From a virus (lineage: Duplodnaviria > Caudoviricetes), in the IMG/VR virus record IMGVR_UViG_3300017912_002026, positions 1 to 36,182 of that record: a stretch of DNA of 36,182 bases. One strand, given 5' to 3'. Positions 3,054-19,076 of the stretch are shown here, in pieces; the stretch's first letter is position 1, and each line of letters opens with the position of its first letter. The notes beneath the pieces are model-generated. The model had not been told where the DNA came from, ran no database searches, and was given only the letters and a program-made list of their open reading frames with translations. Both the position numbers and the translations under genes were made by a program.

Positions 3054-3138
3054 ATTTTTGTACTTACTATTGACATAATATTGTATTTTACTATCTCACT
3101 TGTTAGAAAAATCTTTTATTTATGTCTCTATGTGTTTT

Positions 3139-3167
3139 AGCCCTCTGAGAAATCAGGGGGCTTTGTG
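3139..3167 (+). terminator. Intrinsic terminator after the lysis cassette
   Basis: AGCCCTCTGA-GAAA-TCAGGGGGCT hairpin followed by TTGTGTT. Confidence 0.7.
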
Positions 3168-3169
3168 TT

Positions 3170-3320: not shown

Positions 3321-4313
3321 TCACGCTCTTGCTAACTCCTTATTAATTACATTCTCAACTTGAGACATATCTATATGCGCATACCTTGCAACCTCAGTTT
3401 CAGTAGCGGTTATCTCGCCTACGCTCTTACGATCAAAGCCACCCTTAACTAACAAGGTAAACAATGTATGTCTAATAGAATGCAAGTCTACTCTTGGCGC
3501 GTTCTCTTTTTGATAGTCAGGGAATTCTCGTAAAACAATCTCTCTGAATCTTTTTACGCTAGTTTCTTGCATACCTTTTGATGGCATACAATTGTATATC
3601 TTATTGCCTAATTCTTTAAGCGCGTCAGTATAAGGTATTTTACGATAGGTCTTGCTTTTTTCCTGATACAAACCTGTCTTGACATGAGAGGGCTCTAAAT
3701 TGCCAGCTTGATTAGTTCTTAATCCAGTGTGTAGCATAACTGTCCACAGTGTAGCATCTTTCTCAGTAGGGGCAAGGTCGATCGCTCGTTGTACAACTCC
3801 TATAGGTAGGTCTTGTCTTGGTTTTGTGGCTCTTGTAGAAGGCATGTAGTTCTTAATAGCAAAAGGATTGTCTTCAATCATCTTTGTATTTACTGCCCAC
3901 TGAAACATTCTTTTAATTTCTGTCAAATGATTGTGCGCAGTTTTTGTTGTATACTTTTTTTCTCCTAGCAAATACTCTCTATACTGACAAGCATTTTCAT
4001 AAGAAAAACAACTAATATCCAAAGTGCCAAAAATCTGTTTAAACAACTTAAGTTTAGAGGTGTAGTACACTGGTCTTTTTTTGTTCTTTAGTTCTGCACT
4101 ATAAAACTTGCTGTAGACCTCATCTATTGTATACTCTTTTACAATCCTAGTTGCTTCTAGTCTTGATATGAGACCAGCTTTATATCTTTGAAGCCTTAAA
4201 ACAAATTCATTTTCAAGCTGTGTAGCAATTTTACAATCTTTAGTGCCTAACGATCTGCGCGGTGTTATAGAATCTTTATAATACCAGTATCCATTTTTAT
4301 GTTTAAACTTCAT
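3321..4313 (-). CDS. int: Tyrosine recombinase / phage integrase
   Basis: N-terminal arm-binding-like GYWYY...RRSLGTKD, core-binding helices, HTGLR, HSIRH and RY motifs. Start set at MKFKH (4313) because AAAAGGAG precedes it. Confidence 0.9.
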   Translation of the reverse strand: MKFKHKNGYWYYKDSITPRRSLGTKDCKIATQLENEFVLRLQRYKAGLISRLEATRIVKEYTIDEVYSKFYSAELKNKKRPVYYTSKLKLFKQIFGTLDISCFSYENACQYREYLLGEKKYTTKTAHNHLTEIKRMFQWAVNTKMIEDNPFAIKNYMPSTRATKPRQDLPIGVVQRAIDLAPTEKDATLWTVMLHTGLRTNQAGNLEPSHVKTGLYQEKSKTYRKIPYTDALKELGNKIYNCMPSKGMQETSVKRFREIVLREFPDYQKENAPRVDLHSIRHTLFTLLVKGGFDRKSVGEITATETEVARYAHIDMSQVENVINKELARA

Positions 4314-4345
4314 ATGACTCTCCTTTTTAGTATAAAATTTATTAC

Positions 4346-4374
4346 TTGCGTAATATTTGTAAGTGTGATAAGTT
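4346..4374 (+). promoter_or_regulatory. Sigma70-type promoter for the xis/replication operon
   Basis: TTGCGT-17 nt-TAAGTT with an extended -10 TG. Confidence 0.5.
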
Positions 4375-4413
4375 CTTTTGAACATATCAAAGGTATTCAA
4401 CGGTGTTAATGTA

Positions 4414-4614
4414 ATGCGGAAAGACAATAACTCACAAGTGATATTTTATAAGGTCAATGAAGTAGCTAAAATGCTACAGACAACCCCTAAGACGGTACGA
4501 TCGTATATACATTTAAATAAGCTGGATGCCCATCAATTACCAAATAACGGTGGGTACAGAATACATGAAAGTGATCTTAATCGTTTTATTAGTGGGTTGA
4601 AGATTGCCAAATAA
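4414..4614 (+). CDS. xis: Excisionase-like HTH (MerR/HTH_17) DNA-binding protein
   Basis: YKVNEVAKMLQTTPKTVRSYIHLNKLDA...YRIHESDL pattern; divergent from the integrase. Confidence 0.8.
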   Translation: MRKDNNSQVIFYKVNEVAKMLQTTPKTVRSYIHLNKLDAHQLPNNGGYRIHESDLNRFISGLKIAK

Positions 4615-5413
4615 TTATTTAACCAATTACTTTCCTAACACAACTCGTCAGACAACCCCTTTGGGTCGTGCGTATAAAGACTCAAACGACGAGTCAGAGA
4701 ATCCTTTCCTTGCTTTATCTGTCACTACTATCCTCGGTCTCGTGCTCAGTAAAGGAGCATTTTTTGAGAAGTGGCTGAAGTCTACTGGAAGGCATGCTGA
4801 TGTTGTTAGGGATTATAAAGCTCATCTTGGTACAGTTGTTCATGTATTGTGTGAAGACTTGCTTAACCTCAGTGAGGTATCTCTCTCCACCATATCTGAG
4901 CGTATTCAACGATTCGTAACTGAGCAAGACTTGAACGAGGGCGGTGGCTATGACGCTGTCCAGTATACTGTTCAACTGTATCTTGAGAGCTTTATGGCTT
5001 TTTATGATGAAAATGAATTAGAACTATTTGAAGCAGAGCTACAAATGTTTAGCCCTGATGTGCCTTATGCAGGTACGGCAGATATAATAGGTCGTTTAAA
5101 CGGAAAAACTGCAATCATTGATATTAAGACTGGTATGGAGTCATCACAGCATGATTTACAATTGGTTGCTTACGGTGCATTGCACAATTATTTATTTCCT
5201 AAAAATAAGATACAAGAATTATACGTCCTTTACATAAAGAGCGGTTATAAAAGAAAGCCAACTTACAAACTATCTAAGGTTAGTTGGGATAGGTTGGCAG
5301 ACTGGAAAAGAATATTAAGGTACAGCTTAAGTCAGTATGGCAAGAAGGGAAAGTGGATTTTCCCTAAAAGATTTGAGCCTAGAGAAAATTTTACACTGAA
5401 AGGAGCTAAATAA
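4604..5413 (+). CDS. PD-(D/E)XK exonuclease (phage recombination nuclease)
   Basis: SVTTIL, GTVVH, YAGTADIIG...IIDIKTG and QLVAYG motifs. Confidence 0.85.
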   Translation: MPNNYLTNYFPNTTRQTTPLGRAYKDSNDESENPFLALSVTTILGLVLSKGAFFEKWLKSTGRHADVVRDYKAHLGTVVHVLCEDLLNLSEVSLSTISERIQRFVTEQDLNEGGGYDAVQYTVQLYLESFMAFYDENELELFEAELQMFSPDVPYAGTADIIGRLNGKTAIIDIKTGMESSQHDLQLVAYGALHNYLFPKNKIQELYVLYIKSGYKRKPTYKLSKVSWDRLADWKRILRYSLSQYGKKGKWIFPKRFEPRENFTLKGAK

Positions 5414-5646
5414 TGGCTTATGAAATAAAAGAAAAGGGTGGGTCAATGTTTCCTAATGACAAAAAAGGGAACGACAAAGCGCCTGACATGACTGGTAATG
5501 TCAAGATTGATGGTAAGATATGGAATGTGGCTGGATGGAAAACCAAGTCTAAGCAGGGAAAGGCTTACATGAGTTTAAAAGTAAGTGAGCCCCAAGATAG
5601 TAACGGCAGTCAAGCACAAACAAGCGACGACGATTTACCGTTTTGA
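5413..5646 (+). CDS. Small single-stranded DNA-binding protein (DUF736-like)
   Basis: K-x-x-DKAPDMTG...VAGW...GKAYMSL plus an acidic DDDLPF SSB-type tail; AAGGAG RBS. Confidence 0.75.
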   Translation: MAYEIKEKGGSMFPNDKKGNDKAPDMTGNVKIDGKIWNVAGWKTKSKQGKAYMSLKVSEPQDSNGSQAQTSDDDLPF

Positions 5647-5840
5647 CCTACACTAAATTATGCGAGATGGCTGAATCGATGGATACTGAAAACCAAATTG
5701 CTTTATTTAAACAATATCGTGATAAGGACTGTACTGCCTGTCGTGAAGGTCACTCGTATGATTTTGAAACTGGATACATTGAACCATGTTGGTGCCTACA
5801 AGTGGACTATGAAGAAGACTTGGGGTCAGGACATAACTAA
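5643..5840 (+). CDS. Small Zn-finger-like protein
   Basis: CTAC...CWC; TTGA overlap with the upstream stop. Confidence 0.55.
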   Translation: MTYTKLCEMAESMDTENQIALFKQYRDKDCTACREGHSYDFETGYIEPCWCLQVDYEEDLGSGHN

Positions 5841-6019
5841 AATAGTATTGATATATTGAAGTTTAATTTCACACTTAACTTAAATCAAACAGTTTTGATC
5901 CCATTAGAAACTAGGTGTGTACCTATCTCCTTGATTTGGTTATATCTATATGGAGTTGCAACACCTATAACAGGGGGCAGGCATGCATGTAAACGCCCTC
6001 CTAGCCCCCTTTAAATTTT

Positions 6020-6496
6020 ATGAAAGTTAAATTAAAATTCTCAGAGTGTTTAAACGGTACAATGGTTGGAGCTCTCCGATACTACGAATCTTTATTTAAG
6101 GGTCGTACGACATCTTTCCCACGCTCATATATTGAGCAAGGACTATTGCATCATCAGCAGGGAGCTTTAGCAGAGCTTGCTTATTCTAAATTAAGTGATA
6201 GGTACTGGTCACAGCACGTCAATCGATTCCATGATGATGACCTCAGGGGAGTAGAGGTACGCTACAGCAACCGCAAAGATACAAAGGTACGCCCTGATGA
6301 TAATAACATATGGATAGTATCGATGGGAGGGGAGCTACCAGTATACGAATACAAGGGGTGCATATACAGTGAGGATGCTAAGCGCCCTGAATGGGAAAAA
6401 GATTTTGGGAACTGGGGCAAGCCAGCTTTCTTTGTGCCGAATGAACACTTGACTACCGACCTTCCACCTACCTACACAGAAGAGCCATTGCCATGA
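6020..6496 (+). CDS. Hypothetical protein, possible PD-(D/E)XK-fold nuclease
   Basis: GALAELA...DD...VEVRYS resembles the E...D...ExK motif. Confidence 0.5.
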   Translation: MKVKLKFSECLNGTMVGALRYYESLFKGRTTSFPRSYIEQGLLHHQQGALAELAYSKLSDRYWSQHVNRFHDDDLRGVEVRYSNRKDTKVRPDDNNIWIVSMGGELPVYEYKGCIYSEDAKRPEWEKDFGNWGKPAFFVPNEHLTTDLPPTYTEEPLP

Positions 6497-7155
6497 TACC
6501 TGAAGTCTTCAAAGGGGTATGGATACCTAAAGCAGTATTTGTTTTGGATGACCTAACCTTACATCAGAAGATCGTCTTAAGCATGATACTTAGTTTAACC
6601 AGCGACAAGCCTTGTTTCGCTACTAATCATTACATAGGAGAGATACTTGGTATACATCCTAATCGTGTTAGTGTCCATTTAAATAACCTTAAAAAACTTA
6701 AGTATCTAAGAATAGATATAAATCGTGATGACGATACCAAGCAAATCTTGAAACGATTAATTACCCCTACCCCCTATTTGCGTAATCGGTTAGAGGGTCT
6801 CAACGAAACCGTTAATACCCCTATCAACGAAACCGCTAAAGGAATAACAAAGAGAGATAATAAAGAAGATAATAAACATATACATGTTGACAAGAAACGA
6901 TTAGAACAATTTGAAAAGTTTTGGAATACCATCCCCCCAATCAGGAGAATCAATAAAGCTTTAACTAAAAAACATTGGCAACAGGCTACACATAAGGAAA
7001 GCGTTGATACTATACAAAAAGCTATGGAGCTTTTCGTCGAACGTGTTGAACCTCAATATATAAAGACTAGCTACAACTGGCTAAAGCAGGAATACTGGAA
7101 TTCAGTTCCTGATGAACAACCGAAAGTGAGAAAAGGTTTTGAGTTTGTCAAGTAA
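6493..7155 (+). CDS. Phage replication initiator (N-terminal winged HTH, lambda O-like organisation)
   Basis: FKGVWIP, CFATNHYIGEILG...VSVHLNNLKKLKYL HTH; internal iterons; C-terminal FEKFW...YIKT..NWL domain. Confidence 0.82.
   Translation: MIPEVFKGVWIPKAVFVLDDLTLHQKIVLSMILSLTSDKPCFATNHYIGEILGIHPNRVSVHLNNLKKLKYLRIDINRDDDTKQILKRLITPTPYLRNRLEGLNETVNTPINETAKGITKRDNKEDNKHIHVDKKRLEQFEKFWNTIPPIRRINKALTKKHWQQATHKESVDTIQKAMELFVERVEPQYIKTSYNWLKQEYWNSVPDEQPKVRKGFEFVK
6771..6840 (+). repeat. Iterons, probable replication origin
   Basis: TCAACGAAACCG at 6800 and 6824 (24-bp period), CCCCTAT repeated, and a degenerate upstream copy, all in the initiator linker. Confidence 0.65.
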
Positions 7156-7756
7156 TGAAGAGTTACTGACTACGATGTTTGCTGTGCATGGCAAGAGACC
7201 AATGGATGCACAGTTCAATGAGTACCTGAAGATATTTGATAAGCTGGGATTTGAAAAGGCGGAAAGACTGTTTAAACATGTTAGGGATGAAGAAGACAGG
7301 TTCCCAACTATCAAGCAGTTATGGGGTATCATAAATAGTATGGGTCTGATCGAGAGAAAGCAAGAACAGTTAGAGTCTTATGATGACTGCTATTATTGTG
7401 GTGGGGTAGGGTATGTACCTAGAATGTTTAGCCCTAGACGTGACAAGACATTGATTAGTTATGTGACAAGAGTGTACGCCTGTCAGTGTAAAGCTGGTAT
7501 GAGCCTACCTAAAACATTGCCAAGATATTTTGCTGTATTTGATGCAGTTCAATTTGAACCTATGGATGGTCTGAATTACCCTCAGTTGGTTACTAGGAAA
7601 CAGATTGAACTTAATAACAAGTTACATGAGGAGAAAAATAATGGCGGAGATAACGAAACAAGAAGTAGAGAGCATACAAAAAAACTGGGAGCTCAAGAAC
7701 TTAGAGCAACATTTGAGAGAATTACAGGAACGAATATTGCGGATGAAAATAGATAA
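7139..7756 (+). CDS. Putative replication accessory / helicase-loader-like protein with Zn finger
   Basis: Follows the initiator; RFPTIKQL motif; CYYCGGVG...CQC. Confidence 0.55.
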   Translation: MSLSSNEELLTTMFAVHGKRPMDAQFNEYLKIFDKLGFEKAERLFKHVRDEEDRFPTIKQLWGIINSMGLIERKQEQLESYDDCYYCGGVGYVPRMFSPRRDKTLISYVTRVYACQCKAGMSLPKTLPRYFAVFDAVQFEPMDGLNYPQLVTRKQIELNNKLHEEKNNGGDNETRSREHTKKLGAQELRATFERITGTNIADENR

Positions 7757-7835
7757 TAAGAACATCGTTGCTATACAAAAACTTCAACAACAAGTTGATA
7801 AAACAGTGAGAGAGATTGAAGTCATGCGTGGCTAA
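7641..7835 (+). CDS. Small coiled-coil protein
   Basis: ATG at 7641 (MAEITKQ) with GAGGAG upstream. Confidence 0.5.
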   Translation: MAEITKQEVESIQKNWELKNLEQHLRELQERILRMKIDNKNIVAIQKLQQQVDKTVREIEVMRG

Positions 7836-8265
7836 GAACTACAAAAGTTTTTACAGTGGCTTTCCACAGAAGATTAAACGTGGATGGACTGACCAAATAT
7901 TTAGTGAGTACATACGCGATAGGGCAGGGTGGAGGTGCCAAAATAAGAGATGCGGAAAAAGGTTTGATAAAAATAATGGTAAAGAAAAAAGAAAATTACA
8001 TTGTTGTCATCTAGGATATGGAAGAGCTCATATACAAACTAGATGGAATGAATTTAATTGCCTTGCTCTTTGTAATGGCTGTCATTTACGAGTGGATCAG
8101 CACCCATTACGAGCCCTAAAGATACTGCATGAGAATTTTACCTTAGAGCAAGTGCTTTATGTTAGAGACCAGTACAAAGTGGACATAGGCATGAAACAAA
8201 AAGAATTTGAATTGATTGAGCGAGAAAGAATTAAGAAACTAATAAAAGAGCTTAATAATGAATGA
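7828..8265 (+). CDS. ninG: NinG/Rap-like HNH-type endonuclease
   Basis: DQIFSEYIRDR...C..C...LHCCH...TRWNEFNCLALCNGCH. Confidence 0.8.
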   Translation: MAKNYKSFYSGFPQKIKRGWTDQIFSEYIRDRAGWRCQNKRCGKRFDKNNGKEKRKLHCCHLGYGRAHIQTRWNEFNCLALCNGCHLRVDQHPLRALKILHENFTLEQVLYVRDQYKVDIGMKQKEFELIERERIKKLIKELNNE

Positions 8266-8443
8266 CAAATACAAACTACCTGATGGTGGTCTTGAGGTTA
8301 TAATGATGGCGTTAGCTATGCTGGAGAAATTCGGACATAAGTTTCCCAATATAATTAAAGGCAAGCATTATCAGATAGCGTCAGTGATATATCAAGACCT
8401 GTTAAAGAAAACACAATATGAGCAAAAAGAATACGAATCTTAA
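8258..8443 (+). CDS. Hypothetical protein
   Basis: ORF tightly packed in the operon. Confidence 0.5.
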   Translation: MNDKYKLPDGGLEVIMMALAMLEKFGHKFPNIIKGKHYQIASVIYQDLLKKTQYEQKEYES

Positions 8444-8621
8444 CACGCTAAATAGCAATCTTAAATACATAAGAGCTAATTATAAGAAACTCATATTGAA
8501 AAACTTAATAGCTGGTAAACCTACGAATCGATTAGTGGAAAGATTAAAAGCAGTGGAAATACAAATATGGATGGCAAAAGAATCTCAGGATGGACAGAAA
8601 AAGACAGTATCCAATGGGTAA
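8418..8621 (+). CDS. Hypothetical protein
   Basis: ORF overlapping both neighbours. Confidence 0.4.
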   Translation: MSKKNTNLNTLNSNLKYIRANYKKLILKNLIAGKPTNRLVERLKAVEIQIWMAKESQDGQKKTVSNG

Positions 8622-8824
8622 TTGAGCAGTTAGAAAAGAGCGTTGTACAGGAGGTTAAGCCTGAAGGGGTATGTAACCTCAACTATGATAAAAGCCTAGC
8701 GGATAAACACCTTGTATGGTGCGGTATCTGCGGTATGGTGTATGACAGGGTATACAAAGATATCTATCCTGACTTCCCTAAACTTGGAAAGGAAAGACAT
8801 GACCACAAAAAATGTAAAAAATAA
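8567..8824 (+). CDS. Hypothetical Zn-binding protein
   Basis: WCGICG...YPDFPKLGKERHDHKKC. Confidence 0.55.
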   Translation: MDGKRISGWTEKDSIQWVIEQLEKSVVQEVKPEGVCNLNYDKSLADKHLVWCGICGMVYDRVYKDIYPDFPKLGKERHDHKKCKK

Positions 8825-9143
8825 ACCATTGGATGTAACAGAACATATGATGAAAGAGTATCCTGTTTTGATGAACAGTATTAAAAAACATTTCAATGGA
8901 TGCTTTTCGTTATTTGCTAAGAAACAAATGGATTATGGGTTAGGTAATATTGCTATGAATGGAGATAAAAAATTAGCATTGCTTGGAATCTTAATACGTT
9001 TAAACGACAAAGTTCAAAGAGCATTAAACATAGCTTTAAATGATCAAAATCCTAATAACGAGAGCTTAGAAGATACAGGAAGAGACATCACTAATTATGG
9101 AGCAATATTTAATACGGTACTAAAGGATGAGTGGAAGAAGTGA
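8799..9143 (+). CDS. Nucleotide-modification-associated domain 1 (Nmad1/DUF1599-like) protein
   Basis: KKQMDYG.NI...GILIRLNDKVQR...NESLEDT..DITNYG motif; ATG 8799 with AAGGA upstream. Confidence 0.75.
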   Translation: MTTKNVKNKPLDVTEHMMKEYPVLMNSIKKHFNGCFSLFAKKQMDYGLGNIAMNGDKKLALLGILIRLNDKVQRALNIALNDQNPNNESLEDTGRDITNYGAIFNTVLKDEWKK

Positions 9144-9435
9144 GGGTCTACGACGAAAACGAACACGATACTATAAGCACTCAGCCTTTAAAAAGAAAGA
9201 GCAAGACATCCTTGATTTTAAGACTGATTACAGTGACCAAGAATCTTGGCACCGTTGCATTGAACGAATTGCGATTGCTCAGTCTAAAATTGGGGTTAAG
9301 GATGCGTTACTGTGTGTTGAAAGTGTGGTCAGTAATGTTGAGTATCGTAAGGAAGGTTATGTCTATTGTTCGCCATATCAATTAGAAAGAGCTTTAGAGC
9401 TCATGCGAAAAGTCTATCTGCGTAAGAAGAAGTGA
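9127..9435 (+). CDS. Hypothetical protein (last gene of the rightward operon)
   Basis: ORF ending just before the terminator. Confidence 0.5.
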   Translation: MSGRSEGLRRKRTRYYKHSAFKKKEQDILDFKTDYSDQESWHRCIERIAIAQSKIGVKDALLCVESVVSNVEYRKEGYVYCSPYQLERALELMRKVYLRKKK

Positions 9436-9504
9436 GTTTGGTTGGCGCTAAATAAACTTTTAAATAACCTGTGGTTGTACTGTTTAAACAAGGTAAGCGT
9501 AGAT

Positions 9505-9542
9505 AAAAAAAGCCCCCCAAGATAATTCTCAGGGGGCTTTTT
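9505..9542. terminator. Bidirectional intrinsic terminator between convergent operons
   Basis: AAAAAAAGCCCCC...GGGGGCTTTTT hairpin with flanking A and T tracts. Confidence 0.85.
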
Positions 9543-9545
9543 AGT

Positions 9546-9734
9546 TTAGACTAAGTTCTCTTTAGCCTTCTCTAGAAGATCTGATTTAGGGGTGGCATTG
9601 GCTACCCAATCCTTCAGGATATATCCTATCAATCTCTCTTTCGTTGTGCCTATCTGAACGCTCTTAATAAGTAGCGTATCTTCAGTTGTCTTATTCACGA
9701 CCGCTCTGATAGTCTTTGCTTTTGCTCTGTTCAT
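9546..9734 (-). CDS. Small protein, possible ribbon-helix-helix DNA-binding protein
   Basis: KTIRAVV strand-like segment followed by two helices (GTTKERLIGYILKDW); RHH call is inference. Confidence 0.45.
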   Translation of the reverse strand: MNRAKAKTIRAVVNKTTEDTLLIKSVQIGTTKERLIGYILKDWVANATPKSDLLEKAKENLV

Positions 9735-9931
9735 TCCTGCACCTCCTTTCCATAGTCTTGGTTTATTAAGTAATAGTCAACACTGTCAATCTTTTTATAA
9801 AACCTAACAAACCCACGTTCTAATGCTTTTTCAAGCAATTGGTCTGCGTTTAATTCAAAATTAAATAAAGGTGCTTGTTGCTGGAACAAATCCTCTTTGT
9901 TAATTATCCATGGCATTTTTCTAGGCATCAT
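9731..9931 (-). CDS. Hypothetical protein
   Basis: GAGGTG RBS and coupled to neighbours. Confidence 0.6.
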   Translation of the reverse strand: MMPRKMPWIINKEDLFQQQAPLFNFELNADQLLEKALERGFVRFYKKIDSVDYYLINQDYGKEVQE

Positions 9932-10116
9932 TACACCTCGCTTTCTTTTTGCATATCTGATTTTATTTTGTCTAGTAACTTGCCCATTCTTAAAAGCTCT
10001 GACTTTGCAAGCACTGTAGCATCAAAACCAGCACAAGGGTTTTGCAGTATTGTAATGCAGTTTGATGCAGTTCTCTCCCATGTTGGGGTTAGGTCTATGT
10101 ATTGTTTCTTAGCCAT
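9931..10116 (-). CDS. Hypothetical protein ending KESEV
   Basis: GAGGTG RBS; IDLTPTW motif. Confidence 0.65.
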   Translation of the reverse strand: MAKKQYIDLTPTWERTASNCITILQNPCAGFDATVLAKSELLRMGKLLDKIKSDMQKESEV

Positions 10117-10118
10117 CG

Positions 10119-10283
10119 TTACACCTCACTTTCTTTAGGTTGCTGTTCTTCACGATATGGGTCATCCTCTATCATACGTTGTTTCCAAGAGCGCAATTCC
10201 TTGAGCTCCAGTTCTTGCTCCTGTAGTTTGTTTTCTAAGTCTCTAACTAATTTCTTTAGTAACTCTAAATTAAACTGATTCAC
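10119..10283 (-). CDS. Small coiled-coil protein (54 aa, MNQFNLELLKKL...PKESEV)
   Basis: Translated by hand; GTG start with GAGGTG RBS; not in the ORF track. Confidence 0.65.
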   Translation of the reverse strand: MNQFNLELLKKLVRDLENKLQEQELELKELRSWKQRMIEDDPYREEQQPKESEV

Positions 10284-10284
10284 G

Positions 10285-10626
10285 TTACACCTCACTTTCT
10301 TTGTTTAAACGCGTTTTGTATAAACGCTCTAATCGATCGACTCTGTCAACAGCATACTTTCTTAATCCTGCGCAAAAGATTAATGTTCTCTTATAATCTA
10401 GATTAGCTAGGTAATAGTCTAGGTTGTCTCTGAAGTCCTTGAACTTGCCTGATACATATTCTCTATACTTAGTATTGCTATTATTGAAGTCAGGATAAAA
10501 GTATTCGTAAAACGTCCAGCCATCCATCTCGTTGTGCGCATTTAAAAGTGTTCGTATGTTTGCTAAAATATCCTCATCAGATTGAGGTGCTATTTTTTTT
10601 GCATATTTTTTATCTATTTCTAACAT
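10285..10626 (-). CDS. Hypothetical protein ending KESEV
   Basis: ATG at 10626 preceded by GGAG. Confidence 0.65.
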   Translation of the reverse strand: MLEIDKKYAKKIAPQSDEDILANIRTLLNAHNEMDGWTFYEYFYPDFNNSNTKYREYVSGKFKDFRDNLDYYLANLDYKRTLIFCAGLRKYAVDRVDRLERLYKTRLNKESEV

Positions 10627-10668
10627 TTTATTCTCCATGTGTTTTGTGTTACGGCTTTATTACCGTTG

Positions 10669-10712
10669 AGGATAGGGCTGGAATCGAACCAGCCCAAGCT
10701 CCAAGCTATCCT
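10669..10712 (-). ncRNA. tRNA-like mini-element (acceptor-like stem plus T-arm, no D or anticodon arm)
   Basis: AGGATAG-cttggagcttg-GGCTGG-TTCGATT-CCAGCC-CTATCCT. Confidence 0.5.
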
Positions 10713-10926
10713 AACCCAATGTCTCGCCATACCCATCCCACTCGACAGTTGGGTATCTGTCTTTTCTGTATGGGTACCGTTCAGAGTCGTAGCAGTCGCT
10801 ACAGTACAAGCCAGTAAACATACCATAAGCATCTTTTCGAGACCAATGGTGGTATGTTATTGGCGTTACACTGTCACACTGATTGTCACAGCCCTTGCAT
10901 TGAACTTGTTGTGTTTCATTTAACAT
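10711..10926 (-). CDS. Small Zn-finger protein
   Basis: CKGC...CSDC; AGGAG RBS. Confidence 0.65.
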   Translation of the reverse strand: MLNETQQVQCKGCDNQCDSVTPITYHHWSRKDAYGMFTGLYCSDCYDSERYPYRKDRYPTVEWDGYGETLG

Positions 10927-10934
10927 ATTAGCTC

Positions 10935-11237
10935 CTAACCTTTTACCTGTCTACTCATTATAACTGCTTGCTCAGCGCAAAAGCTCTGAATGCTCATAGC
11001 CAGTTTGTAGAACTCAGGTTTGAGGTTGACTCTATCGTTAGGTGTCTTTTTAACAACTGTTTTAGTCTTGTTAACACAGTGCTTAGGCATGACTGTTTTC
11101 ATACCGTCCTCTGTGGTGTTTAAACAGATATTATCTAGCACCTCCATAAAGCACCTCTCTAGGCTCTCAATTGATTTAGCACTCAATGATAAGCCTTTGG
11201 CATTGATATGCTTTTTTACCTTGCTTTTCTGAATCAT
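10935..11237 (-). CDS. Bacterial-type histone-fold protein with C-terminal helical extension
   Basis: SKVKKHINAKG-LSLSAKSIESL...EDGMKTVM matches the Bd0055-type histone pattern as I recall it; GAGGTG RBS. Confidence 0.75.
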   Translation of the reverse strand: MIQKSKVKKHINAKGLSLSAKSIESLERCFMEVLDNICLNTTEDGMKTVMPKHCVNKTKTVVKKTPNDRVNLKPEFYKLAMSIQSFCAEQAVIMSRQVKG

Positions 11238-11335
11238 AGCGCACCTCTCAAAAAGGCTAGGATAAAGTGTCCGCCAAAATAAAGTATGGCGAACACTATA
11301 AACCAGTTAGTGAGCTTGTCGATGTATTTATCCAT
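11234..11335 (-). CDS. Small single-TM peptide (33 aa, MDKYIDKLTNWFIVFAILYFGGHFILAFLRGAL)
   Basis: Translated by hand; GAGG RBS; ATGA coupling to the histone gene. Confidence 0.6.
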   Translation of the reverse strand: MDKYIDKLTNWFIVFAILYFGGHFILAFLRGAL

Positions 11336-12083
11336 TTGCGACCTCTTTTCTGAGCTTTTCCTGTTCATGTAGATAAACTCTACGTTCCAAGTGTCTAATT
11401 ATGATGCCGTTGACTTCAGGGTCATCAGAGAACATTGGCTGGCGACACTCAGGACAAACTGCACTTCCATATTCTACAATGTTTTTTCTACTTGTCCTGA
11501 CAATGTAGTCATGGTCTACAGCTTGACAGTTAAGCTTAAGCATCCTAGTGGTCTGAACTCTGCGCTTAACAGGCAACCATTTAGTATGAGGAATCTTACC
11601 TACCTTTTTAACCATTTTGTCGATCTTCTTGACGAGCTCTTTAGACTCTGTAGTTGCAGTCATTTTACCCTCTAATCCTACAGCTAACGCTAGGGTTTTG
11701 AATTTACCTCTGTGACCCTCGGCTGGTGTCAGGTAATGAATTAGCTCATGGATAAGAACACCGACTATCTTTGTGGTGTCAGTCAAGTCAGGAGTAATAA
11801 GTATCTGAGTCTTCATTTTCTCCTTGTCAGATATGCTGTAGCCAGCCCAGCATTGACCTATAATATTGCTGGTCTTTTTAGCTCTGTAGAGCTTGCCATT
11901 GACAACCTGACCATTGATACGTTTATTAGGTGGAAATGCCATGCTAAACTGTAGGTCTTTAATATTGAATTTCTTCTTAATACCTAGCTTGTTAAGCAAT
12001 GGTTGTTTAAACAGGTCTTTGTTGACTACCTGAGCCATCTCAAAGAGCCACTCTTCACGAGAATGTATCTTAGGTTTATTCAC
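11328..12083 (-). CDS. SprT-like zinc metallopeptidase with C-terminal Zn ribbon
   Basis: VLIHELIH...GHRGKF (HExxH...H); C-terminal C..H...CPEC; GTG start with GGAGGTG RBS. Confidence 0.8.
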   Translation of the reverse strand: MNKPKIHSREEWLFEMAQVVNKDLFKQPLLNKLGIKKKFNIKDLQFSMAFPPNKRINGQVVNGKLYRAKKTSNIIGQCWAGYSISDKEKMKTQILITPDLTDTTKIVGVLIHELIHYLTPAEGHRGKFKTLALAVGLEGKMTATTESKELVKKIDKMVKKVGKIPHTKWLPVKRRVQTTRMLKLNCQAVDHDYIVRTSRKNIVEYGSAVCPECRQPMFSDDPEVNGIIIRHLERRVYLHEQEKLRKEVANG

Positions 12084-12292
12084 GCTACACCTCCCTCGAT
12101 TTTGCACTGTATCTCGTATTGTTTTGTCTCTAGCTTTTCTTTCTTGTGTTCTAGCGAGTCTATTTTGCGTTCTTGCTTGGGAGTTGCGTTAACAATATCA
12201 TATAAGTCTGTAAGTTCTATCTCTATGTCATCTATAGACTTAGCGACCTTAGCAAACTTATTTTCTAGTTTCTGTATTGTTTTGTTTGACAT
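12080..12292 (-). CDS. Coiled-coil protein, first gene of the leftward operon
   Basis: ATG at 12292 (MSNKTIQ) with GAGAGGA RBS. Confidence 0.6.
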   Translation of the reverse strand: MSNKTIQKLENKFAKVAKSIDDIEIELTDLYDIVNATPKQERKIDSLEHKKEKLETKQYEIQCKIEGGVA

Positions 12293-12398
12293 TATATATG
12301 TCCTCTCTGTGTTTTTGTGTGTGCTCACGACGAGCCAACCCTACGCGTAGTAAGCAATTGTGTTGTTTTGATGTTTTTTTGGGCTGTTTCATAAACAC

Positions 12399-12428
12399 AT
12401 CTTAATCACATTAATCACAATTGTGCAA
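12399..12428 (-). promoter_or_regulatory. Leftward early promoter with tandem TGTGATTAA repeats in the spacer
   Basis: TTGCAC-18 nt-TAAGAT; AT-rich upstream region containing the ATGTTTAAACAT palindrome. Confidence 0.55.
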
Positions 12429-12783
12429 GTAAATAATGTTTAAACATCTATTTATTTTTAATCTGTCGTCGTGAACAAGATAAACGATTGTATTAGTTTT
12501 GAGTTGGTAATGTGACTATTATTGACCCAATTCAGGCACGCATTTTATGTTTCAGAATTCGTTTTGACATATAATAGGTGTCGACAGCACTAAATCAGAG
12601 GGTGTCAGGGTTAGTTACCCTCCCTTTATCGACGAGAAAGTAGTCGATTAAGTACAGTTTAAGTCCTTTTCGTGGGCGTGTATTGATTTAATTGTGTTTG
12701 GCAGGGTAGGGGAGCCCCCTCCCTTCCGATCGGTACCTTGCGCATGTGCTGGTGGGTAGTTATTAATTGACACAGGGAATATT

Positions 12784-13107
12784 GTGGCTAGAAAACCAAA
12801 ATCTAAAAAAGACATGTTAGCTAAGTCTTGGGGCGAATGGATCAGAAGTCATCCACAGACCCCTGCCTTACTACAAAAATTATTTGATACTGCTATGACT
12901 GATGGAGACCCAAACCAGTTTAAAGCTATTAATATGCTTGTAGACCGTATTGCTCCACACTTGAAAGCCGTTGAGATGGATGTTAAGGGCGAAATATCTC
13001 AAGGTGTCATAGTTTTACCTGAGAAAAAGAAGAAGACCCCTCGTAAGCCTACTCAAGTTGATTTGGTAGCTGAGGAGGTAATTAAAGACATAAGCGCGGA
13101 GGCATAA
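12784..13107 (+). CDS. terS: Putative terminase small subunit
   Basis: Position upstream of terL; helical core, FKAINMLVDR..P.LKAVE and VIVLPEK tail. Confidence 0.6.
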   Translation: MARKPKSKKDMLAKSWGEWIRSHPQTPALLQKLFDTAMTDGDPNQFKAINMLVDRIAPHLKAVEMDVKGEISQGVIVLPEKKKKTPRKPTQVDLVAEEVIKDISAEA

Positions 13108-13263
13108 ATGAGTTTATATGAAAATATAAATAAACGTAAAAAGGCTGGTACAAGCAGATCAAAAGCTAATACAACTATTGATCCTAAGACCTATGCCAAA
13201 ATGCAAGCCAAAAAAGGTGGGTTTGCTCCTAAGAAGAAAAAGAAAAAAGCTAAGATGGTCTAA
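13108..13263 (+). CDS. Small basic protein (51 aa, MSLYENINKRKKAGTSRSK...)
   Basis: Translated by hand; GGAGG RBS; resembles basic peptides common in aquatic phages. Confidence 0.7.
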   Translation: MSLYENINKRKKAGTSRSKANTTIDPKTYAKMQAKKGGFAPKKKKKKAKMV

Positions 13264-13523
13264 TGTCGCAAGCTTGGACAAGAAAAGAAGGCAAGAATCC
13301 TGCTGGTGGATTGAATGCTAAGGGAAGAGCAAGTTACACAAAAGGTAACTTGAAGCCCCCTGTCACTGAATCTAATCCTACTGGTAAACGCAAATCTAGA
13401 AAAAAATCTTTTTGTGCACGTATGTGTGGCATGAAAAAGAAAAGAACAGGTAGAGCAACTGCTAACGATCCTAATTCAAGAGTAAATAAATCATTACGCA
13501 TTTGGAAATGTCGCTGTAGTTAA
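13263..13523 (+). CDS. Conserved basic phage protein (DUF6321-like)
   Basis: WTRKEGKNP.GGLNAKGRASY...KSFCARM...DPNSR.NKSLR.W.C. Confidence 0.7.
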   Translation: MSQAWTRKEGKNPAGGLNAKGRASYTKGNLKPPVTESNPTGKRKSRKKSFCARMCGMKKKRTGRATANDPNSRVNKSLRIWKCRCS

Positions 13524-14902
13524 TGGCTGAAAAAATAATATGGCAACCCCATAAAGGTGCACAGACTAAAGCTTTACAGCAATCATCTAAAGAGATACTT
13601 TTTGGGGGAAGTCGCGGTGGGGGCAAGACCGAAGCTGGTTTAGCTTGGATGATAGAGCCCACCTACCTAATGAATGAAAGATATAGAGGTCTTGTCATTC
13701 GTAGAAACTATGATGACCTAAGAGACTGGATCGATAGAGCCAAAATGTTCTATCGTAGTTTAGGGGTAAAAGTTACAGGTAATCCAGCAGAATTCTCTTT
13801 TCCTAGTGGCGCTAAGATAAGAACTGGTCATTTAGCTGACAGTGACGCTACTTACAAGTATCTTGGACACGAATATCATAAGATATTGATTGAAGAGCTT
13901 ACTATAATACCCTCAGAAGAAAACTATTTACGTCTAATATCTACCTGTAGATCAACAGTTAAAGGTTTGGAGCCTCAGGTCTTCTGCACAACAAACCCTG
14001 CTGGTGTGGGTCATATGTGGGTTAAGCAACGTTTTGTAGATGTAGCGCGCAATAAAGAATATGTTGACCCAAAAACAGGGCAAACAAGAATATTTATCCC
14101 CTCTCAAATATATGACAACCCTACCTTAATGGAGAACGACCCTGACTATGTAAAACATTTAGAGGGCTTACCTGAAGATTTAAAACGTGTTTGGTTAGAT
14201 GGCGACTGGGATTGCTTTCAGGGACAGTATTTTTCTAGATGGAGACACGAAAAACACGTCATTACACCATTTAAGATACCTCAAGACTGGCATAGGTACA
14301 GAATGATTGACTATGGATACAAAGCTAATTTTGTATGCTTATGGGTTGCTGTGGATTATGATGGTACTGCCTATGTATATCGCGAGCACTCAGAAGCTGG
14401 ACAACCCCTATCTTATCATATACAAAAGATTTTAGAATACAGTGGAGATGAAAAATATGAGAACACTCTTGCTGACCCCTCTATGTGGATCAAGAATCCT
14501 CAAAATACTAACACTTGGTCAAATGCTATGCCTACTCATATGTCTATTGCCGACATTATGTTGAAAAACGGTATACCTGTAAACCGCGCTAATAACGACA
14601 GAATAAGTGGCTGGAACCTCATACGCGAGTATTTGGAATGGAATGACTCGGATAAACCTGAACCACGTATTAAATTTTTTAAAAATTGCAAAGAAACGAT
14701 AAAGAACTTACCTATGCTTGTACACTCAGAGCGCAAGCCTGAGGATTTAGATACAACTCAACATGATCACGAAGCGGATGCGCTTAGATATGGAATGATG
14801 TATATAGGTAGTCCAAGCAAAGAAAAGATAAAGCCGTTTTTAGAAAGAGAGTTAGAGAAGTTATTAGCACTAGACGACCAATATATGGGGGTAAGGAATT
14901 GA
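13523..14902 (+). CDS. terL: Terminase large subunit
   Basis: Walker A GGSRGGGKT, Walker B ILIEE, TTNP motif, nuclease IDYG and DHEADALRY. Confidence 0.95.
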   Translation: MAEKIIWQPHKGAQTKALQQSSKEILFGGSRGGGKTEAGLAWMIEPTYLMNERYRGLVIRRNYDDLRDWIDRAKMFYRSLGVKVTGNPAEFSFPSGAKIRTGHLADSDATYKYLGHEYHKILIEELTIIPSEENYLRLISTCRSTVKGLEPQVFCTTNPAGVGHMWVKQRFVDVARNKEYVDPKTGQTRIFIPSQIYDNPTLMENDPDYVKHLEGLPEDLKRVWLDGDWDCFQGQYFSRWRHEKHVITPFKIPQDWHRYRMIDYGYKANFVCLWVAVDYDGTAYVYREHSEAGQPLSYHIQKILEYSGDEKYENTLADPSMWIKNPQNTNTWSNAMPTHMSIADIMLKNGIPVNRANNDRISGWNLIREYLEWNDSDKPEPRIKFFKNCKETIKNLPMLVHSERKPEDLDTTQHDHEADALRYGMMYIGSPSKEKIKPFLERELEKLLALDDQYMGVRN

Positions 14903-15087
14903 TTAAGATTATCCTTTTTGATGAAATGGGAGAATATGAGATATCCCTGCCAACCGATGATAGCTCTGATCCTGATTTAGATGACGCATCTATGTTGGAA
15001 TACGAGAGAGCCATAGCATCTATAGCTACAAGATTTTTAGATATCCAATGCGACCCCAATAACCAGTTAATAGGCACACAATGTTAA
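14899..15087 (+). CDS. Small acidic hypothetical protein
   Basis: Bridges terL and the portal with overlaps; TAAGGA RBS. Confidence 0.5.
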   Translation: MIKIILFDEMGEYEISLPTDDSSDPDLDDASMLEYERAIASIATRFLDIQCDPNNQLIGTQC

Positions 15088-16832
15088 AATACAAACCAAC
15101 ACCACAAGACAAAGAAACTATCAAGCGCACAGAAAATATGTTTCAGATTGCTAGAAAAGCACGATCTGAAGTAACCAAGCTTTGGCGAGAAGCCGAAGGT
15201 CTGTATCAGGGCAACCACTGGGAAGGCATGAACATGCCCCAGTTTAAAAATCAGATAACAATAGATATGATTGCATCAGCTATTGATACTATGATTCCTA
15301 TATTGTCATCTAGACCCCCTAAGATCGATATCCTGAGCGTAACTGGCGACGATAAGGGGATGAATGTAGCTGACACATTACAAGCCTTTATGGACGAATT
15401 ATGGCAGATAAGGGATATGCAAAACCTTATACCTGAATTCCTACTTGATTACTTAGTGTATGGTACTGGTATACTTAAAACACAGTGGAACAATGTAGAC
15501 GATATGCCTGATTGTGATATTATTGATCCATTTAATTTTTATGTCAACCCTTCCGCAACCAAATTAGAAAATGCAGAGTGGGTGTGTCTAGCATCTGCAA
15601 TGCCTATATATGAAATAAAAGAACGTTTTGATAACGGTCAGTTTGTCAAGCCAATGAGCGACCTTGAGAAATATTCATCAACTAAGATAGGTGTATCAAA
15701 CTTTGGAGACGATAAAATCCAAGTAACAGATACAAAAGGACAAGAGACTAATTATTACGAGAGCTATGGTAAAGCTATGGAAGATTTAGAGCCACGCGCC
15801 TTAGTAATAGAGTGTTATATGAGAGACCCCTCAAAAGAATATGTAACTACTGACGACGGCAAAGAGAAACAACAAATGAAATACCCTAATGGTATGCGCC
15901 AAGTCATTGTCAGTAATGGAGTATTGCTTTATGATGGAAAAACAAAATACCCATTCTTTGACAAAAAGAATCACTGTCCGCACCCTTTTCCTTTTGTTAC
16001 GATTAAAAATACTGGTTCTCCTCACTCGTTTTGGGGAAAGCCTGAACCAAAGAGATTAAAGTCTATTAACCTTGCTATGGATCGAATCGCAAGTCAGGTC
16101 TCAGATAATATAGCCCTAACAGCTTCTCCGAACTGGATTGTAGATGAAACGGCTGGGGTTGAAAATCAAATAACTAATAAACCAGCACAAATTATTAGGA
16201 AGAAGGGAGCAGGACAAGTATCTATGCAGTCTCCTCCTTCTATGCCTAGTTATGTATTTAATTTTTATCAACTGCTTGGCGACGTATTCGAGACAGTAAG
16301 TGGAGTCAATAAAGCAACTCAAGGCAAAGAAGCCAGTAACGTAACAAGTGGAGTCCAAGCTCAGATATATCGCCAAGCCAGCACTACTAAGATAGATTTT
16401 AAATCTCGTACCTTAGATCAAGCAATTTCTGTGCTAGGAACTATGTGGGTTGCTATGTTTAAACACTTAGGCAACCAAGTTAAGAGAGTCAACTTTGTTG
16501 GTAACGATGGAGTAACTGAACCTAGAGATTTAATTGGTGTGATGTTTAAAGAGATTGATCTAATGGTCAGGGCAAAAGCTGGCTCAATGTTACCTGAAAA
16601 TAGAATGTTTGTTGAAAACAAAATATTACAACTTGCCCAACTTGGCATCGTGACAGACCCTGAATATATTGTCGAAAACATGGAAATGCCGTCGAAAGAA
16701 AGATTGTTAGCTAAGATAAGAGAAGAGAAAGAACAGCAGGGTCAACCTCCAGCACCTGAGGAGCTTGGTAATAATGAGGATGAAATATTTGAAACATTGA
16801 GGAATAATCCTACCCTAATAGACCAAGTGTAA
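15081..16832 (+). CDS. Portal protein (podovirus/P22-like)
   Basis: Size and position; YGTGILK, DPFNFYVNP, FPFV...SFWG and ETVSGV...QG...SGV motifs. Confidence 0.9.
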   Translation: MLKYKPTPQDKETIKRTENMFQIARKARSEVTKLWREAEGLYQGNHWEGMNMPQFKNQITIDMIASAIDTMIPILSSRPPKIDILSVTGDDKGMNVADTLQAFMDELWQIRDMQNLIPEFLLDYLVYGTGILKTQWNNVDDMPDCDIIDPFNFYVNPSATKLENAEWVCLASAMPIYEIKERFDNGQFVKPMSDLEKYSSTKIGVSNFGDDKIQVTDTKGQETNYYESYGKAMEDLEPRALVIECYMRDPSKEYVTTDDGKEKQQMKYPNGMRQVIVSNGVLLYDGKTKYPFFDKKNHCPHPFPFVTIKNTGSPHSFWGKPEPKRLKSINLAMDRIASQVSDNIALTASPNWIVDETAGVENQITNKPAQIIRKKGAGQVSMQSPPSMPSYVFNFYQLLGDVFETVSGVNKATQGKEASNVTSGVQAQIYRQASTTKIDFKSRTLDQAISVLGTMWVAMFKHLGNQVKRVNFVGNDGVTEPRDLIGVMFKEIDLMVRAKAGSMLPENRMFVENKILQLAQLGIVTDPEYIVENMEMPSKERLLAKIREEKEQQGQPPAPEELGNNEDEIFETLRNNPTLIDQV

Positions 16833-16910
16833 CGATTTATCTATTTTAAACGTTGACACGATAAGAATTTCAAGCAGTACAGTTCTTACAAGATTGGAGA
16901 AAATACAACT

Positions 16911-17825
16911 ATGAGTGAGAACATAGAAGGTGGCACTTACGGTGAAGTCGTAGAAGCGAGCGTGGCTGACTCCCTATTCGCACCCAATGAGGGGGAGCAA
17001 CAGTCAACTGCAACCGAAGAACCAAACAGCGAAGCAACGGCTGAAGAGCAAGTAGAGACTCAAGAAAATGAGCAACCTGAAAGCTTAGATCAAACTGTTG
17101 CAACAGAAGATGGCGAACCTGAGATCATTGATTTTACAGAAATTGAGATTGATGGAGAAACCTACACAACTGAACAGCTACAAGAGTTTATAAAAGACTC
17201 TAGAAATAAAGCTGATTGGCAAAAGAGCAATACTCAAAAAGCTCAAGAAATTGCTAAACAAGAAAAAGCTTTAAAAGCTGAGTTTGAACGCATTAATGGT
17301 GTGATGCAAGATGACGAGGTTGTGGAAACCATGAAAGACTTATTGGGCGATGACCATGAGTTTTTTAAGGAGTCTACTGTAAAGTTTTCTGAAAATGTGG
17401 ATGAACAGAAGCAAGACAACCTTACACCACCTGTGGAAGATCAGGGCGATAGTAGGGTTGATGAATTAGAAGCTCAAGTACGACAGATGCAACTAGAGCG
17501 CGAAGTTGCTAACGAAATAAATACTCTCGTACAATCACATCCTGAGCTTGAGAATGATGGCGATGCAATATCAGAGGTGTTAGATATTGCCGTAGACCGC
17601 AATATAGCGAGTCTCGAAGATGCCTACCTTCTTGCGCAAGCTAAGGCTACTGAAGAATCTGCTGTAATGAAAGCTGTTAAGAAATTGAAAGAGGCTGAAG
17701 ACCTTAAGGCAATACCTGAGGTGGATAGTAATAAGAAAGGGGATCACAGCCCAACGGTTGAGAAATCTCCTGACTTTGACCACGCAAGGGATATAGCTCT
17801 TAAGGAATATCAGCTATTTAATTAA
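16911..17825 (+). CDS. Scaffolding protein
   Basis: Acidic, coiled-coil; IDGE...L......ADWQK..QK.QE.A motif; between portal and capsid. Confidence 0.8.
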   Translation: MSENIEGGTYGEVVEASVADSLFAPNEGEQQSTATEEPNSEATAEEQVETQENEQPESLDQTVATEDGEPEIIDFTEIEIDGETYTTEQLQEFIKDSRNKADWQKSNTQKAQEIAKQEKALKAEFERINGVMQDDEVVETMKDLLGDDHEFFKESTVKFSENVDEQKQDNLTPPVEDQGDSRVDELEAQVRQMQLEREVANEINTLVQSHPELENDGDAISEVLDIAVDRNIASLEDAYLLAQAKATEESAVMKAVKKLKEAEDLKAIPEVDSNKKGDHSPTVEKSPDFDHARDIALKEYQLFN

Positions 17826-17846
17826 TAAATAACAGGGGGAAGACAA

Positions 17847-18821
17847 ATGTCTTTGAACTACGACAATTTATCTGCCTTAACAAAGAATCAATATATTCCT
17901 TTGTTAGTAGATAATATTTTTGAAAGTAATGTTCTAACCCATCGCCTTTTAAGAAAATCTAAAGCATCTGCAAGTGGTATGAAAGTGTTGCAACCAGTCG
18001 AGTATGCTAAGAATACAAGCTCAGGCTTTTATTCAGGCTACGACGTAATGAATACAGCGCCTACAGAGACCTTTACCGATGCTGAATTTTCTTGGAGTCA
18101 AATGTACTCTACTATTTCAATTTCAGGTCGTGAAGAAGCTTTGAACGACGGTGCTGAAAGAGTAATAGATTTATTAGAAGCGAAGGTTAAGAACGCAGAA
18201 AAATCCATGAAAGATAGTTTTGGTACTACTCTTTATGGTTCACAAGATGGTACTGGTAATGATTTTGTTGGTTTACAGCATATAATTGCTGAAGATAGAA
18301 CCTTAGGTGGCATTAACTCCACAACCTACACATGGTGGGATGGAGGATACGTTAATGCTGTATCAGGTTCTCCAACATATGCAAATATTGTTGATTCAAC
18401 CAATGCAAATTTCATTCAAGACCTCTTGAGAAAATCAGTCAGTTCACTTACCATTGACGGTCAAAGACCAACAATGATTGTGACTACACCAATCATCTTG
18501 GATGCTTATGAGGAATCATTAGTAGCTCAAAAACGTTTTGGTGCGTCTGCTGGCTCAGAAGCTGATGCTGGATTTAGGAATTTAACTTTCCGCGATATTC
18601 CAATATTTGCCGATGATCACTGCCCTGCTGGTATGATGTTCTTGTTAAACGAGAATTTCATTCAGTTCAGGCATCACAGAAAGAGAAACTTTACATTCGA
18701 GCCATTTCAAAAGCCGATTAATCAAGACGCTCGTGTTGCAAAGATTCTATGGTTAGGAGCATTAACCTGTTCTGCTCCTCGCTATATGGGTAAGATAACA
18801 GGTCTACCAAGTTCATATTAA
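17847..18821 (+). CDS. Major capsid protein
   Basis: LVDNIF, ISISGREE.LN.G...IDLL..KV.NAE, GF.NL.F..IPI..D..CP; follows the scaffold. Confidence 0.9.
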   Translation: MSLNYDNLSALTKNQYIPLLVDNIFESNVLTHRLLRKSKASASGMKVLQPVEYAKNTSSGFYSGYDVMNTAPTETFTDAEFSWSQMYSTISISGREEALNDGAERVIDLLEAKVKNAEKSMKDSFGTTLYGSQDGTGNDFVGLQHIIAEDRTLGGINSTTYTWWDGGYVNAVSGSPTYANIVDSTNANFIQDLLRKSVSSLTIDGQRPTMIVTTPIILDAYEESLVAQKRFGASAGSEADAGFRNLTFRDIPIFADDHCPAGMMFLLNENFIQFRHHRKRNFTFEPFQKPINQDARVAKILWLGALTCSAPRYMGKITGLPSSY

Positions 18822-18833
18822 TAGGAGTTAATT

Positions 18834-19076
18834 ATGGCAACTGCACAATCAGCATCCGATCTTAAAACCGTTGGAATGCTAACTGAAAAAGACGCTGGTG
18901 GTTTCGTATTCACTGCTATTGGTGGAGTAAGATTTTACTCAGGACAAGGAGCACCGAATCACGCAAGTGTAAAAGGTTCGCTATACATGGACACAAGTGG
19001 AGCAGAAATGTACATATGTGTTACTGCGGATTCAGCTACAACTGGTGCGTGGAAAAAGATCACTAGAGCATCTTAA
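18834..19076 (+). CDS. Small virion protein (possible capsid decoration)
   Basis: AGGAG RBS; G.GAP....KGSLY.DT motif; co-transcribed with the capsid gene. Confidence 0.55.
   Translation: MATAQSASDLKTVGMLTEKDAGGFVFTAIGGVRFYSGQGAPNHASVKGSLYMDTSGAEMYICVTADSATTGAWKKITRAS

Follow-up and report, generated by a model that had tools for sequence, protein, structure and literature searches.

The 100-residue basic protein encoded by the gene under study is a histone-fold protein and a member of a published viral class, described as phage histones by Schwab et al. (2024; PMC11390915) and as the viral tail-to-tail cluster (VTTHFP) in a survey of 2025 (PMC13681535). The first-pass annotation had assigned it to the bacterial type represented by Bd0055 of Bdellovibrio; the protein belongs instead to the phage histone/VTTHFP class, as the arginine–aspartate clamp is missing and a tail extension is present. 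The octamer GTTTAAAC, which is dispersed over the window (the whole virus record analysed here, 36,182 bases in length and rated 90% complete), is independent of the histone and, judged from gene and motif co-occurrence, most likely belongs to the neighbouring gene for a SprT-like protease. The features discussed below are listed in Table 1.

Table 1. Features annotated in the window, with their coordinates and strands.
Feature	Position	Strand	Remarks
tRNA-like RNA element	10669..10712	-	Acceptor-like stem, short GG connector, T-arm; no anticodon arm
Phage histone gene	10935..11237	-	100 aa, pI 9.6; member of the phage histone/VTTHFP class
α3-truncated histone fold, residues 1–54	11076..11237	-	AF2 helices 4–13 and 22–43, one-turn α3
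Basic linker, residues 55–72	11022..11075	-	5 K/R vs 1 D/E; low model confidence
Amphipathic C-terminal helix, residues 74–98	10944..11018	-	AF2 model, block pLDDT 80–93
Short hydrophobic peptide	11234..11338	-	Overlaps SprT stop and histone start; second-ATG start inferred (ORF 11234–11368)
SprT-like metalloprotease	11328..12107	-	HELIH motif; phrog_6361, E 9e-27
Dispersed array of 23 exact GTTTAAAC palindromes	1875..33812	.	18 coding, 5 intergenic
GTTTAAAC copy in the histone gene	11118..11125	.	Codons C38-L39-N40

In the accessible text of Schwab et al. (PMC11390915), phage histones are an α3 fold with a C-terminal helix predicted to tetramerise; they lack RxTxxxD, conserve K10, K49 and a side arginine, and possibly bridge DNA. 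The hLife survey of 2025 (PMC13681535) presents VTTHFP as the most abundant viral cluster, with K5, K9, R29 and K48. The window protein likewise has an N-terminal α3-truncated fold, a flexible loop or linker followed by a C-terminal helix, and no RxTxxxD. The corresponding residues K4, K8, R28 and K47 were found in 95%, 90%, 95% and 98% of 97 family members, a numbering that fits the published classes with offsets of 2 (PMC11390915) and 1 (PMC13681535). The published members come from tailed marine phages, as here: the window encodes a terminase, a P22/SU10-type portal, an SU10 capsid protein, a tyrosine integrase and an excisionase-like HTH protein, as expected of a tailed dsDNA phage, and the sequencing runs containing this stretch were seawater metagenomes, two of which cover it in full and may be its source. 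No class-level difference was found. The two best matches among viral folds (BFVD), A0A516M1G1 (64% identity, E 2.8e-11) and A0A516LIY4 (27% identity, E 1.9e-4), both carry the label 'Phage histone' in the source data accompanying PMC11390915; a peptide search of the available supplements of Schwab et al. found no sequences. The window gene adds a member to a class already listed by two computational surveys, in 2024 and 2025. A literature search found no DNA-binding, oligomer or expression measurements on any member of the phage histone class.

The open reading frame agreed with the first-pass annotation in coordinates, strand, length and translation. A GAGG-type ribosome site lies 4–8 nt upstream of the histone ATG, which overlaps the stop codon of the upstream hydrophobic peptide, itself likely a single transmembrane segment. 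The gene is under purifying selection, with a dN/dS of 0.085 against the homologue in L001, although 8 of 15 pairs were saturated at synonymous sites. Seven close relatives (62%–99% identity) were found initially, and a profile search subsequently yielded 93 proteins among 418 candidates; the conservation figures given here were taken from the 97-member family alignment, and the family profile was built from 75 sequences. The window protein itself matched nothing in Pfam or PHROGs, and two of four relatives weakly matched PF00808 (E 0.006 and 0.012). No relative was found by tblastn against 50,697 GenBank phages, and thus no cultured carrier of the histone was identified in that set.

The pattern of Bd0055 cited in the first-pass annotation proved real: phmmer aligned residues 2–54 to 8fvx with one gap and 34% identity, at an E-value (0.08) that is non-significant alone. 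The 75-sequence family profile matched four α3 histones at E 1.4–3e-7, including 9f2c (HTkC, 1.4e-7), 9qt0 (HLp, 1.7e-7) and 8fvx (Bd0055/HBb, 2.7e-7). An AlphaFold (AF2) monomer model computed from 26 sequences (mean pLDDT 83.5, pTM 0.47) was then compared with known structures. Foldseek, which had been proposed as a check against histone folds, ranked HLp first (TM 0.83 by target, 1.3 Å), followed by HBb and HTkC, none of which reached E 0.001. VIA gave HLp a Z of 7.6 (1.3 Å over 54 residues), below the 'distinctive' level of that tool, with HBb and HTkC at 7.2 and 7.1 and the next row at 5.4. The histone fold claimed from the sequence was thus borne out by a family profile at E ~2e-7 and by a model matching HLp at 1.3 Å. 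Conserved residues in this part are K4, K6, K8, R28, K47 and T48. The replacement of the clamp arginine by methionine and of its aspartate by histidine, also pointed out previously, is a family trait (M46 in 94% and H53 in 95% of the 97 members; segment MKTVMPKH), and HTkC likewise has a histidine at the clamp position.

Comparison with cellular histones clarified both the likeness and the differences. Bd0055/HBb, the 'bacterial dimer' of Bdellovibrio (PDB 8fvx, 8cmp and 9ezz), shares the α3 fold, the α1 lysines and a near-gapless alignment over residues 2–54, but it is a cellular gene product that retains RKTxxxD and lacks a tetramerising tail, whereas the window protein has M46, H53 and a 45-residue extension. 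Neither the RKTxxxD motif nor a histone fold free of any further oligomerisation domain, which mark the Bd0055 type, was therefore seen in the window protein. The best structural match, HLp (9qt0), binds DNA without sequence specificity and shields it from MNase, and its backbone contacts S14, K15, K17 and T57 (10.1101/2025.05.08.652872, accessible text) align with S5, K6, K8 and T48 of the window protein. The interface of the face-to-face tetramer of HLp and HTkC is not conserved, as the phmmer alignment places N40, D44 and M46 of the window protein opposite R49, N53 and R55 of HLp. In MJ1647, a Methanococcales histone (PDB 8bdk), and in the coiled-coil histones, a C-terminal tetramerisation module joins dimers and bridges DNA, according to the accessible text of PMC11390915. 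MJ1647 is archaeal and cellular, and matches the window family weakly (profile E 0.44, VIA Z 4.2); the tail modules of the two proteins are likely an analogous solution.

The basic linker and the additional C-terminal helix noted in the first reading are both present, with linker residues 63–65 modelled at a pLDDT below 50. The hydrophobic face of the helix is conserved (residues 72, 76, 77, 79, 80, 86, 87, 91, 94 and 98) and the helix is detached from the fold in the single-chain model (pTM 0.47), as would be typical of a surface used for oligomerisation. An oligomerising function, also suggested previously, agrees with these features and with the tetramer predicted for the class in the accessible texts of PMC11390915 and PMC13681535; the tail helix is thus a predicted tetramerisation element, and the arrangement as a handshake dimer with tail-to-tail tetramerisation follows the prediction in the literature. 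In 75 of the 97 members, a CxxC motif precedes the tail helix, and C87 and H88 occur in 75% and 53% of members, respectively; from these alignment patterns, CxxC is a possible inter-chain zinc site. The window protein and its subclade lack CxxC, and 13 members of this subclade have C54 beside the near-invariant H53. Loss of CxxC with gain of C54 as compensation (13/22 vs 0/75) was considered and set aside: the change falls in one clade of a quick tree (support 92) and is weak evidence because it represents a single event. The main texts of PMC11390915 and PMC13681535 do not mention cysteines or zinc for this class, and the supplementary logos may show the motif. The 97-member family offers clear residues to mutate, including a possible metal clasp previously unremarked in those main texts. 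Examples carrying CxxC are L006 (10001–10306) and P0060. Separately, a histone subgroup with a longer and different tail (~130 aa) keeps CxxC and has the helix end replaced (P0022, P0114, P0117–P0120, P0122–P0125 and P0128; L007, L031 and L035).

The genomic context described in the first-pass annotation, namely a SprT-like reading frame and a hydrophobic peptide upstream, the lack of a CI match and an octamer within the gene, was found as stated. The histone gene belongs to a run of small leftward genes (9546–12328) that is divergent from the packaging genes and convergent on the replication genes; judged from gene content, this run is presumably an 'early' operon. Over 35 IMG/VR loci and the window, the histone occurs in three arrangements, i.e., inside a leftward cluster of small genes (the window group), as a solitary gene pointing away from the replication operon (the group of L014, L020, L031 and L035), or as the first gene after the structural block (a low-GC group, directly after the last structural gene); in all three it lies among or heads small genes of early type. 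A 63% identical copy was found in L324, which has an unrelated virion module. The slot upstream of the histone in the window group holds either the SprT-like gene (window, L001 and L008) or the anti-restriction gene ArdC (PF08401 + PF18818; L002 7865–8926 and L010 8660–9649, both on the plus strand). Among 15 histone-bearing records at least 90% complete, tyrosine integrases were found in two and serine recombinases in none, with the proviso that divergent enzymes may be missed; the integrase of the window itself scores below the PF00589 cut-off. A metagenome scan gave 27 histone loci, and no prophage junction was found in the two long ones that were read.

GGCC, CCWGG, GCWGC, CCAGA/TCTGG, CCCG/CGGG and CCGG were each counted zero times in the window, which points to strong restriction pressure. 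The sets avoided by relatives overlap with this one and differ from it, often including GATC, GCGC and CGCG, which suggests hosts with many restriction systems. TCAGG is in excess across the window (1–36182).

The most likely role of the histone, a reading that we hold with about even confidence, is to coat the phage DNA early in infection, binding it non-specifically and bridging it. The protein would likely bind the DNA backbone without sequence preference, its C-terminal helices are predicted to join two histone dimers into a DNA-bridging tetramer, and the resulting early coat would likely compact and shield intracellular phage DNA. We infer DNA binding, early expression and action on phage DNA; shielding in particular is suggested by the avoidance of restriction sites together with the ArdC/SprT neighbours, although site avoidance could equally mean that the histone protects poorly. 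Furthermore, DNA binding may be weak, because the RD clamp, the family residue R17 (79% of members; serine here) and the equivalent of HLp K21 (asparagine here) are all missing.

Ranked next, as a serious though clearly less probable reading, is action mainly on the host chromosome through nucleoid remodelling, dampened transcription or a dominant-negative partnership with a host α3 histone. The fold is the same as that of bacterial chromatin histones, HLp decondenses the nucleoid when present in E. coli (10.1101/2025.05.08.652872, accessible text), and a non-specific binder would presumably meet far more host than phage DNA early in infection; however, the neighbouring genes are of anti-defence type. 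Replacement of CI by the histone as a silencer of the prophage or of early genes, which had also been put forward, follows in the ranking and is quite unlikely. It is in keeping with the integrase, the excisionase and the lack of an HTH_3/CI match in this 90% complete record, as well as with the isolated, divergent position of the histone in L014, L020, L031 and L035. The scarcity of recombinases in complete histone phages (with the same proviso on divergent integrases) nevertheless disfavours silencing as a role of the family, and the sister phage L329 has the histone as well as a repressor-like HTH gene adjacent to its integrase (17826–18587, plus strand; read by eye). The anti-defence slot and the few integrases together make an early function in a lytic cycle more likely than prophage silencing.

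Condensation of DNA within the capsid or at packaging is very unlikely: the protein is small and basic and the low-GC group places its gene directly behind the last structural gene, but the window and two other groups have it outside or opposite the structural operon, and L324 carries the same gene with an unrelated virion module. Less probable again is an adaptor that no longer binds DNA and instead binds metal or protein. The loss of the clamp, CxxC in 75 of 97 members, C87 and the invariant-like H53 would suit a metal site, yet conservation is highest at the surface lysines and the arginine of the DNA face.

GTTTAAAC is the top 8-mer of the window (23 copies against 1.3 expected; none of 100 shuffles exceeded 4), and the one-letter variants checked were rare. 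Thirteen copies lie within 1.8–12.7 kb (p 0.008); those in coding sequence, 18 in all, are spread over two reading frames. A link between the histone and GTTTAAAC, as implied by the copy within the gene, was not upheld: this site is absent from the close histone relatives L002, L003 and L008, most histone phages are unenriched (8 of 35 loci show enrichment), and motif-rich phages often lack the histone, which was found in none of 131 viral loci fetched by the motif pair (77 of them at least 4 kb). Recognition of GTTTAAAC by the histone, with the array as its binding site, is accordingly barely credible. This reading could draw on the in-gene copy, which is kept in L001, L009 and L010, and on the motif-rich G009 and G010, which have the histone and in which SprT was not found; on the other side, these two records are near-duplicates that are 48% and 67% complete, and 11 of 15 complete histone phages have 0–5 copies, whereas the four with 11–21 copies are the same four that have SprT. 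A host-genome repeat was not found either, as a GTDB scan for triple GTTTAAAC (121 loci, 80 with flanks, 47/64 parts scanned) gave none with at least five dispersed clusters, and the literature search found no relevant report on the octamer in phages.

A false lead was thus removed, as the octamer goes with the SprT-like neighbour. When proteins of motif-rich loci were clustered, the SprT-like gene of the window formed the top shared family. SprT was present in 5 of 9 enriched histone loci against none of 27 others, and in 21 of 30 enriched motif-pair loci against 3 of 41 others, counts obtained after dropping six duplicates and loci under 4 kb, with a profile built from enriched loci and kinship uncorrected. 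Among complete histone phages, the four with SprT carry 21, 14, 13 and 11 copies of GTTTAAAC and the 11 without it carry 0–5 (p 0.002). The counter-case is again G009 and G010, with 10 and 11 copies and ArdC in the slot. Two complete genomes, G014 and G023, share their gene order near the histone; the former carries SprT and 14 octamers, the latter 5 octamers and no SprT, and G023 may represent an array decaying after SprT loss.

An IMG/VR search with the single SprT protein gave no loci, its alignment being too divergent for such a search, and the reverse test was run on GenBank phages. The family was found in 164 of them (tblastn), from which 14 were chosen for host spread before their motifs were seen. 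GTTTAAAC was counted 34 times in Venkman, 17 in R5C, 16 in Pan1, 7 in Mica, 6 in PT1 and 4 each in ep3 and Persinger; GTGTAAAC was counted 39 times in UNTPL, 28 in Reedo, 22 in Zeta1847 and 13 in 4A. Hence, GTKTAAAC is repeated in 11 of the 14 SprT phages, weakly so in ep3 (0.9 expected). Armstrong, Dismas and MW2 had 0, 0 and 1 copies, and these are the three of 11 proteins examined in which the C-terminal Q[STG]TR segment is replaced.

The SprT-like reading frame matches PF10263 at E 5.6e-4, below the Pfam cut-off. A search with a model of residues 11–170 indicated a HExxH zincin domain resembling SPRTN/Wss1 (VIA top SPRTN 6mdx, Z 7.8, rmsd 3.5, 98 aligned, followed by abylysin and Wss1; middling Z), and the C-terminal domain (QTTR..C..Y.R.S..CPxC) lay unmatched outside that search. 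Some of the densest loci have no HExxH or were matched over the C-terminal domain only (L205, L213; L192, L196), which makes the C-terminal domain the likely reader. From co-occurrence and residue covariation, this small Cys domain is a likely candidate reader of GTKTAAAC and would read the octamer array. In the accessible text of 10.1101/2025.05.26.655371, the SprT-like protease of cluster AZ phages (Lizalica gp46), which belongs to the same protein family as the window protein, is described with HEXXH, a small predicted DNA-binding C-terminal domain and a possible link to lysogeny. The main text of that preprint names no binding word ('TAAAC', 0 matches), and the accessible text of PMC7302621 has no match to 'SprT' or 'TAAAC'. 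Genome-wide arrays of GTTTAAAC or GTGTAAAC accompany the SprT-like gene (phrog_6361) in phages from several bacterial phyla. Of the elements at this locus, this pairing is both the more surprising and the easier to test, and culturable models that show it include Arthrobacter AZ phages, Streptomyces phage UNTPL and the Methylophilales phage Venkman. The stoperators of cluster A mycobacteriophages provide a parallel in that many sites for a phage protein are spread over the genome; a stoperator, however, is asymmetric, 13 bp long and bound by an HTH repressor, whereas the octamer is an 8-bp site tied to a protease fusion. In Venkman (L288, 1099–4658), many octamers lie at early-gene junctions, where their TAA serves as a stop codon ahead of the next ATG.

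The tRNA-like element, which lies downstream of the histone in the window, occurs one to three times within the corresponding operon of relatives, in many cases 16 nt past the histone stop (L001 at ~9404–9447 and 10297–10340; L002, L003, L008, L009, L323, L327 and L329). With the structure drawn from the window copy, 95.9% of cells paired over 15 copies and 10 of 13 pairs changed on both sides, against 36%–57% in slid controls. Rfam gave a weak tRNA-Sec match (E 0.62) and no family at threshold, and ARAGORN found no tRNA in the window. The element may act as an mRNA processing mark.

These elements could also be read jointly, as a module for 'chromatin and address' that combines a zinc-clasped histone tetramer, an octamer-docked SprT-like protease and tRNA-like control of mRNA, a combination that we regard as unlikely. 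CxxC pairs would lock the tail helices in the manner of the Rad50 zinc hook, with the metal site moved to H53/C54/C87 in the window subclade, and the histone would coat incoming phage DNA non-specifically. The co-transcribed SprT-like protease would dock on the 23 GTTTAAAC sites and clear either host defence proteins or the histone coat off self DNA, and the tRNA-like elements would set the mRNA levels of the operon genes.

Other features of the record were also observed. A promoter scan of the window was at chance level (12 vs 8.6 ± 2.5), and no RNA run was listed among the 21 runs matching the stretch. The last gene of the leftward run (9546–9734, minus strand) encodes a conserved protein of 62 aa that resembles an RHH repressor by eye, without Pfam support; a similar-sized gene in L031 gave weak RHH/ParG matches (E 0.05–0.07), and the window gene is a candidate regulator of this phage, which lacks CI. 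Between the converging operons, the stretch at 9477–9587 is hairpin-rich, with weak Rfam matches of leader or terminator type and an octamer copy at 9482, and is probably a terminator region. A 1970-aa protein (27556–33468, plus strand) had no Pfam or PHROG match and, judged by its position, is likely an ejected internal virion protein.
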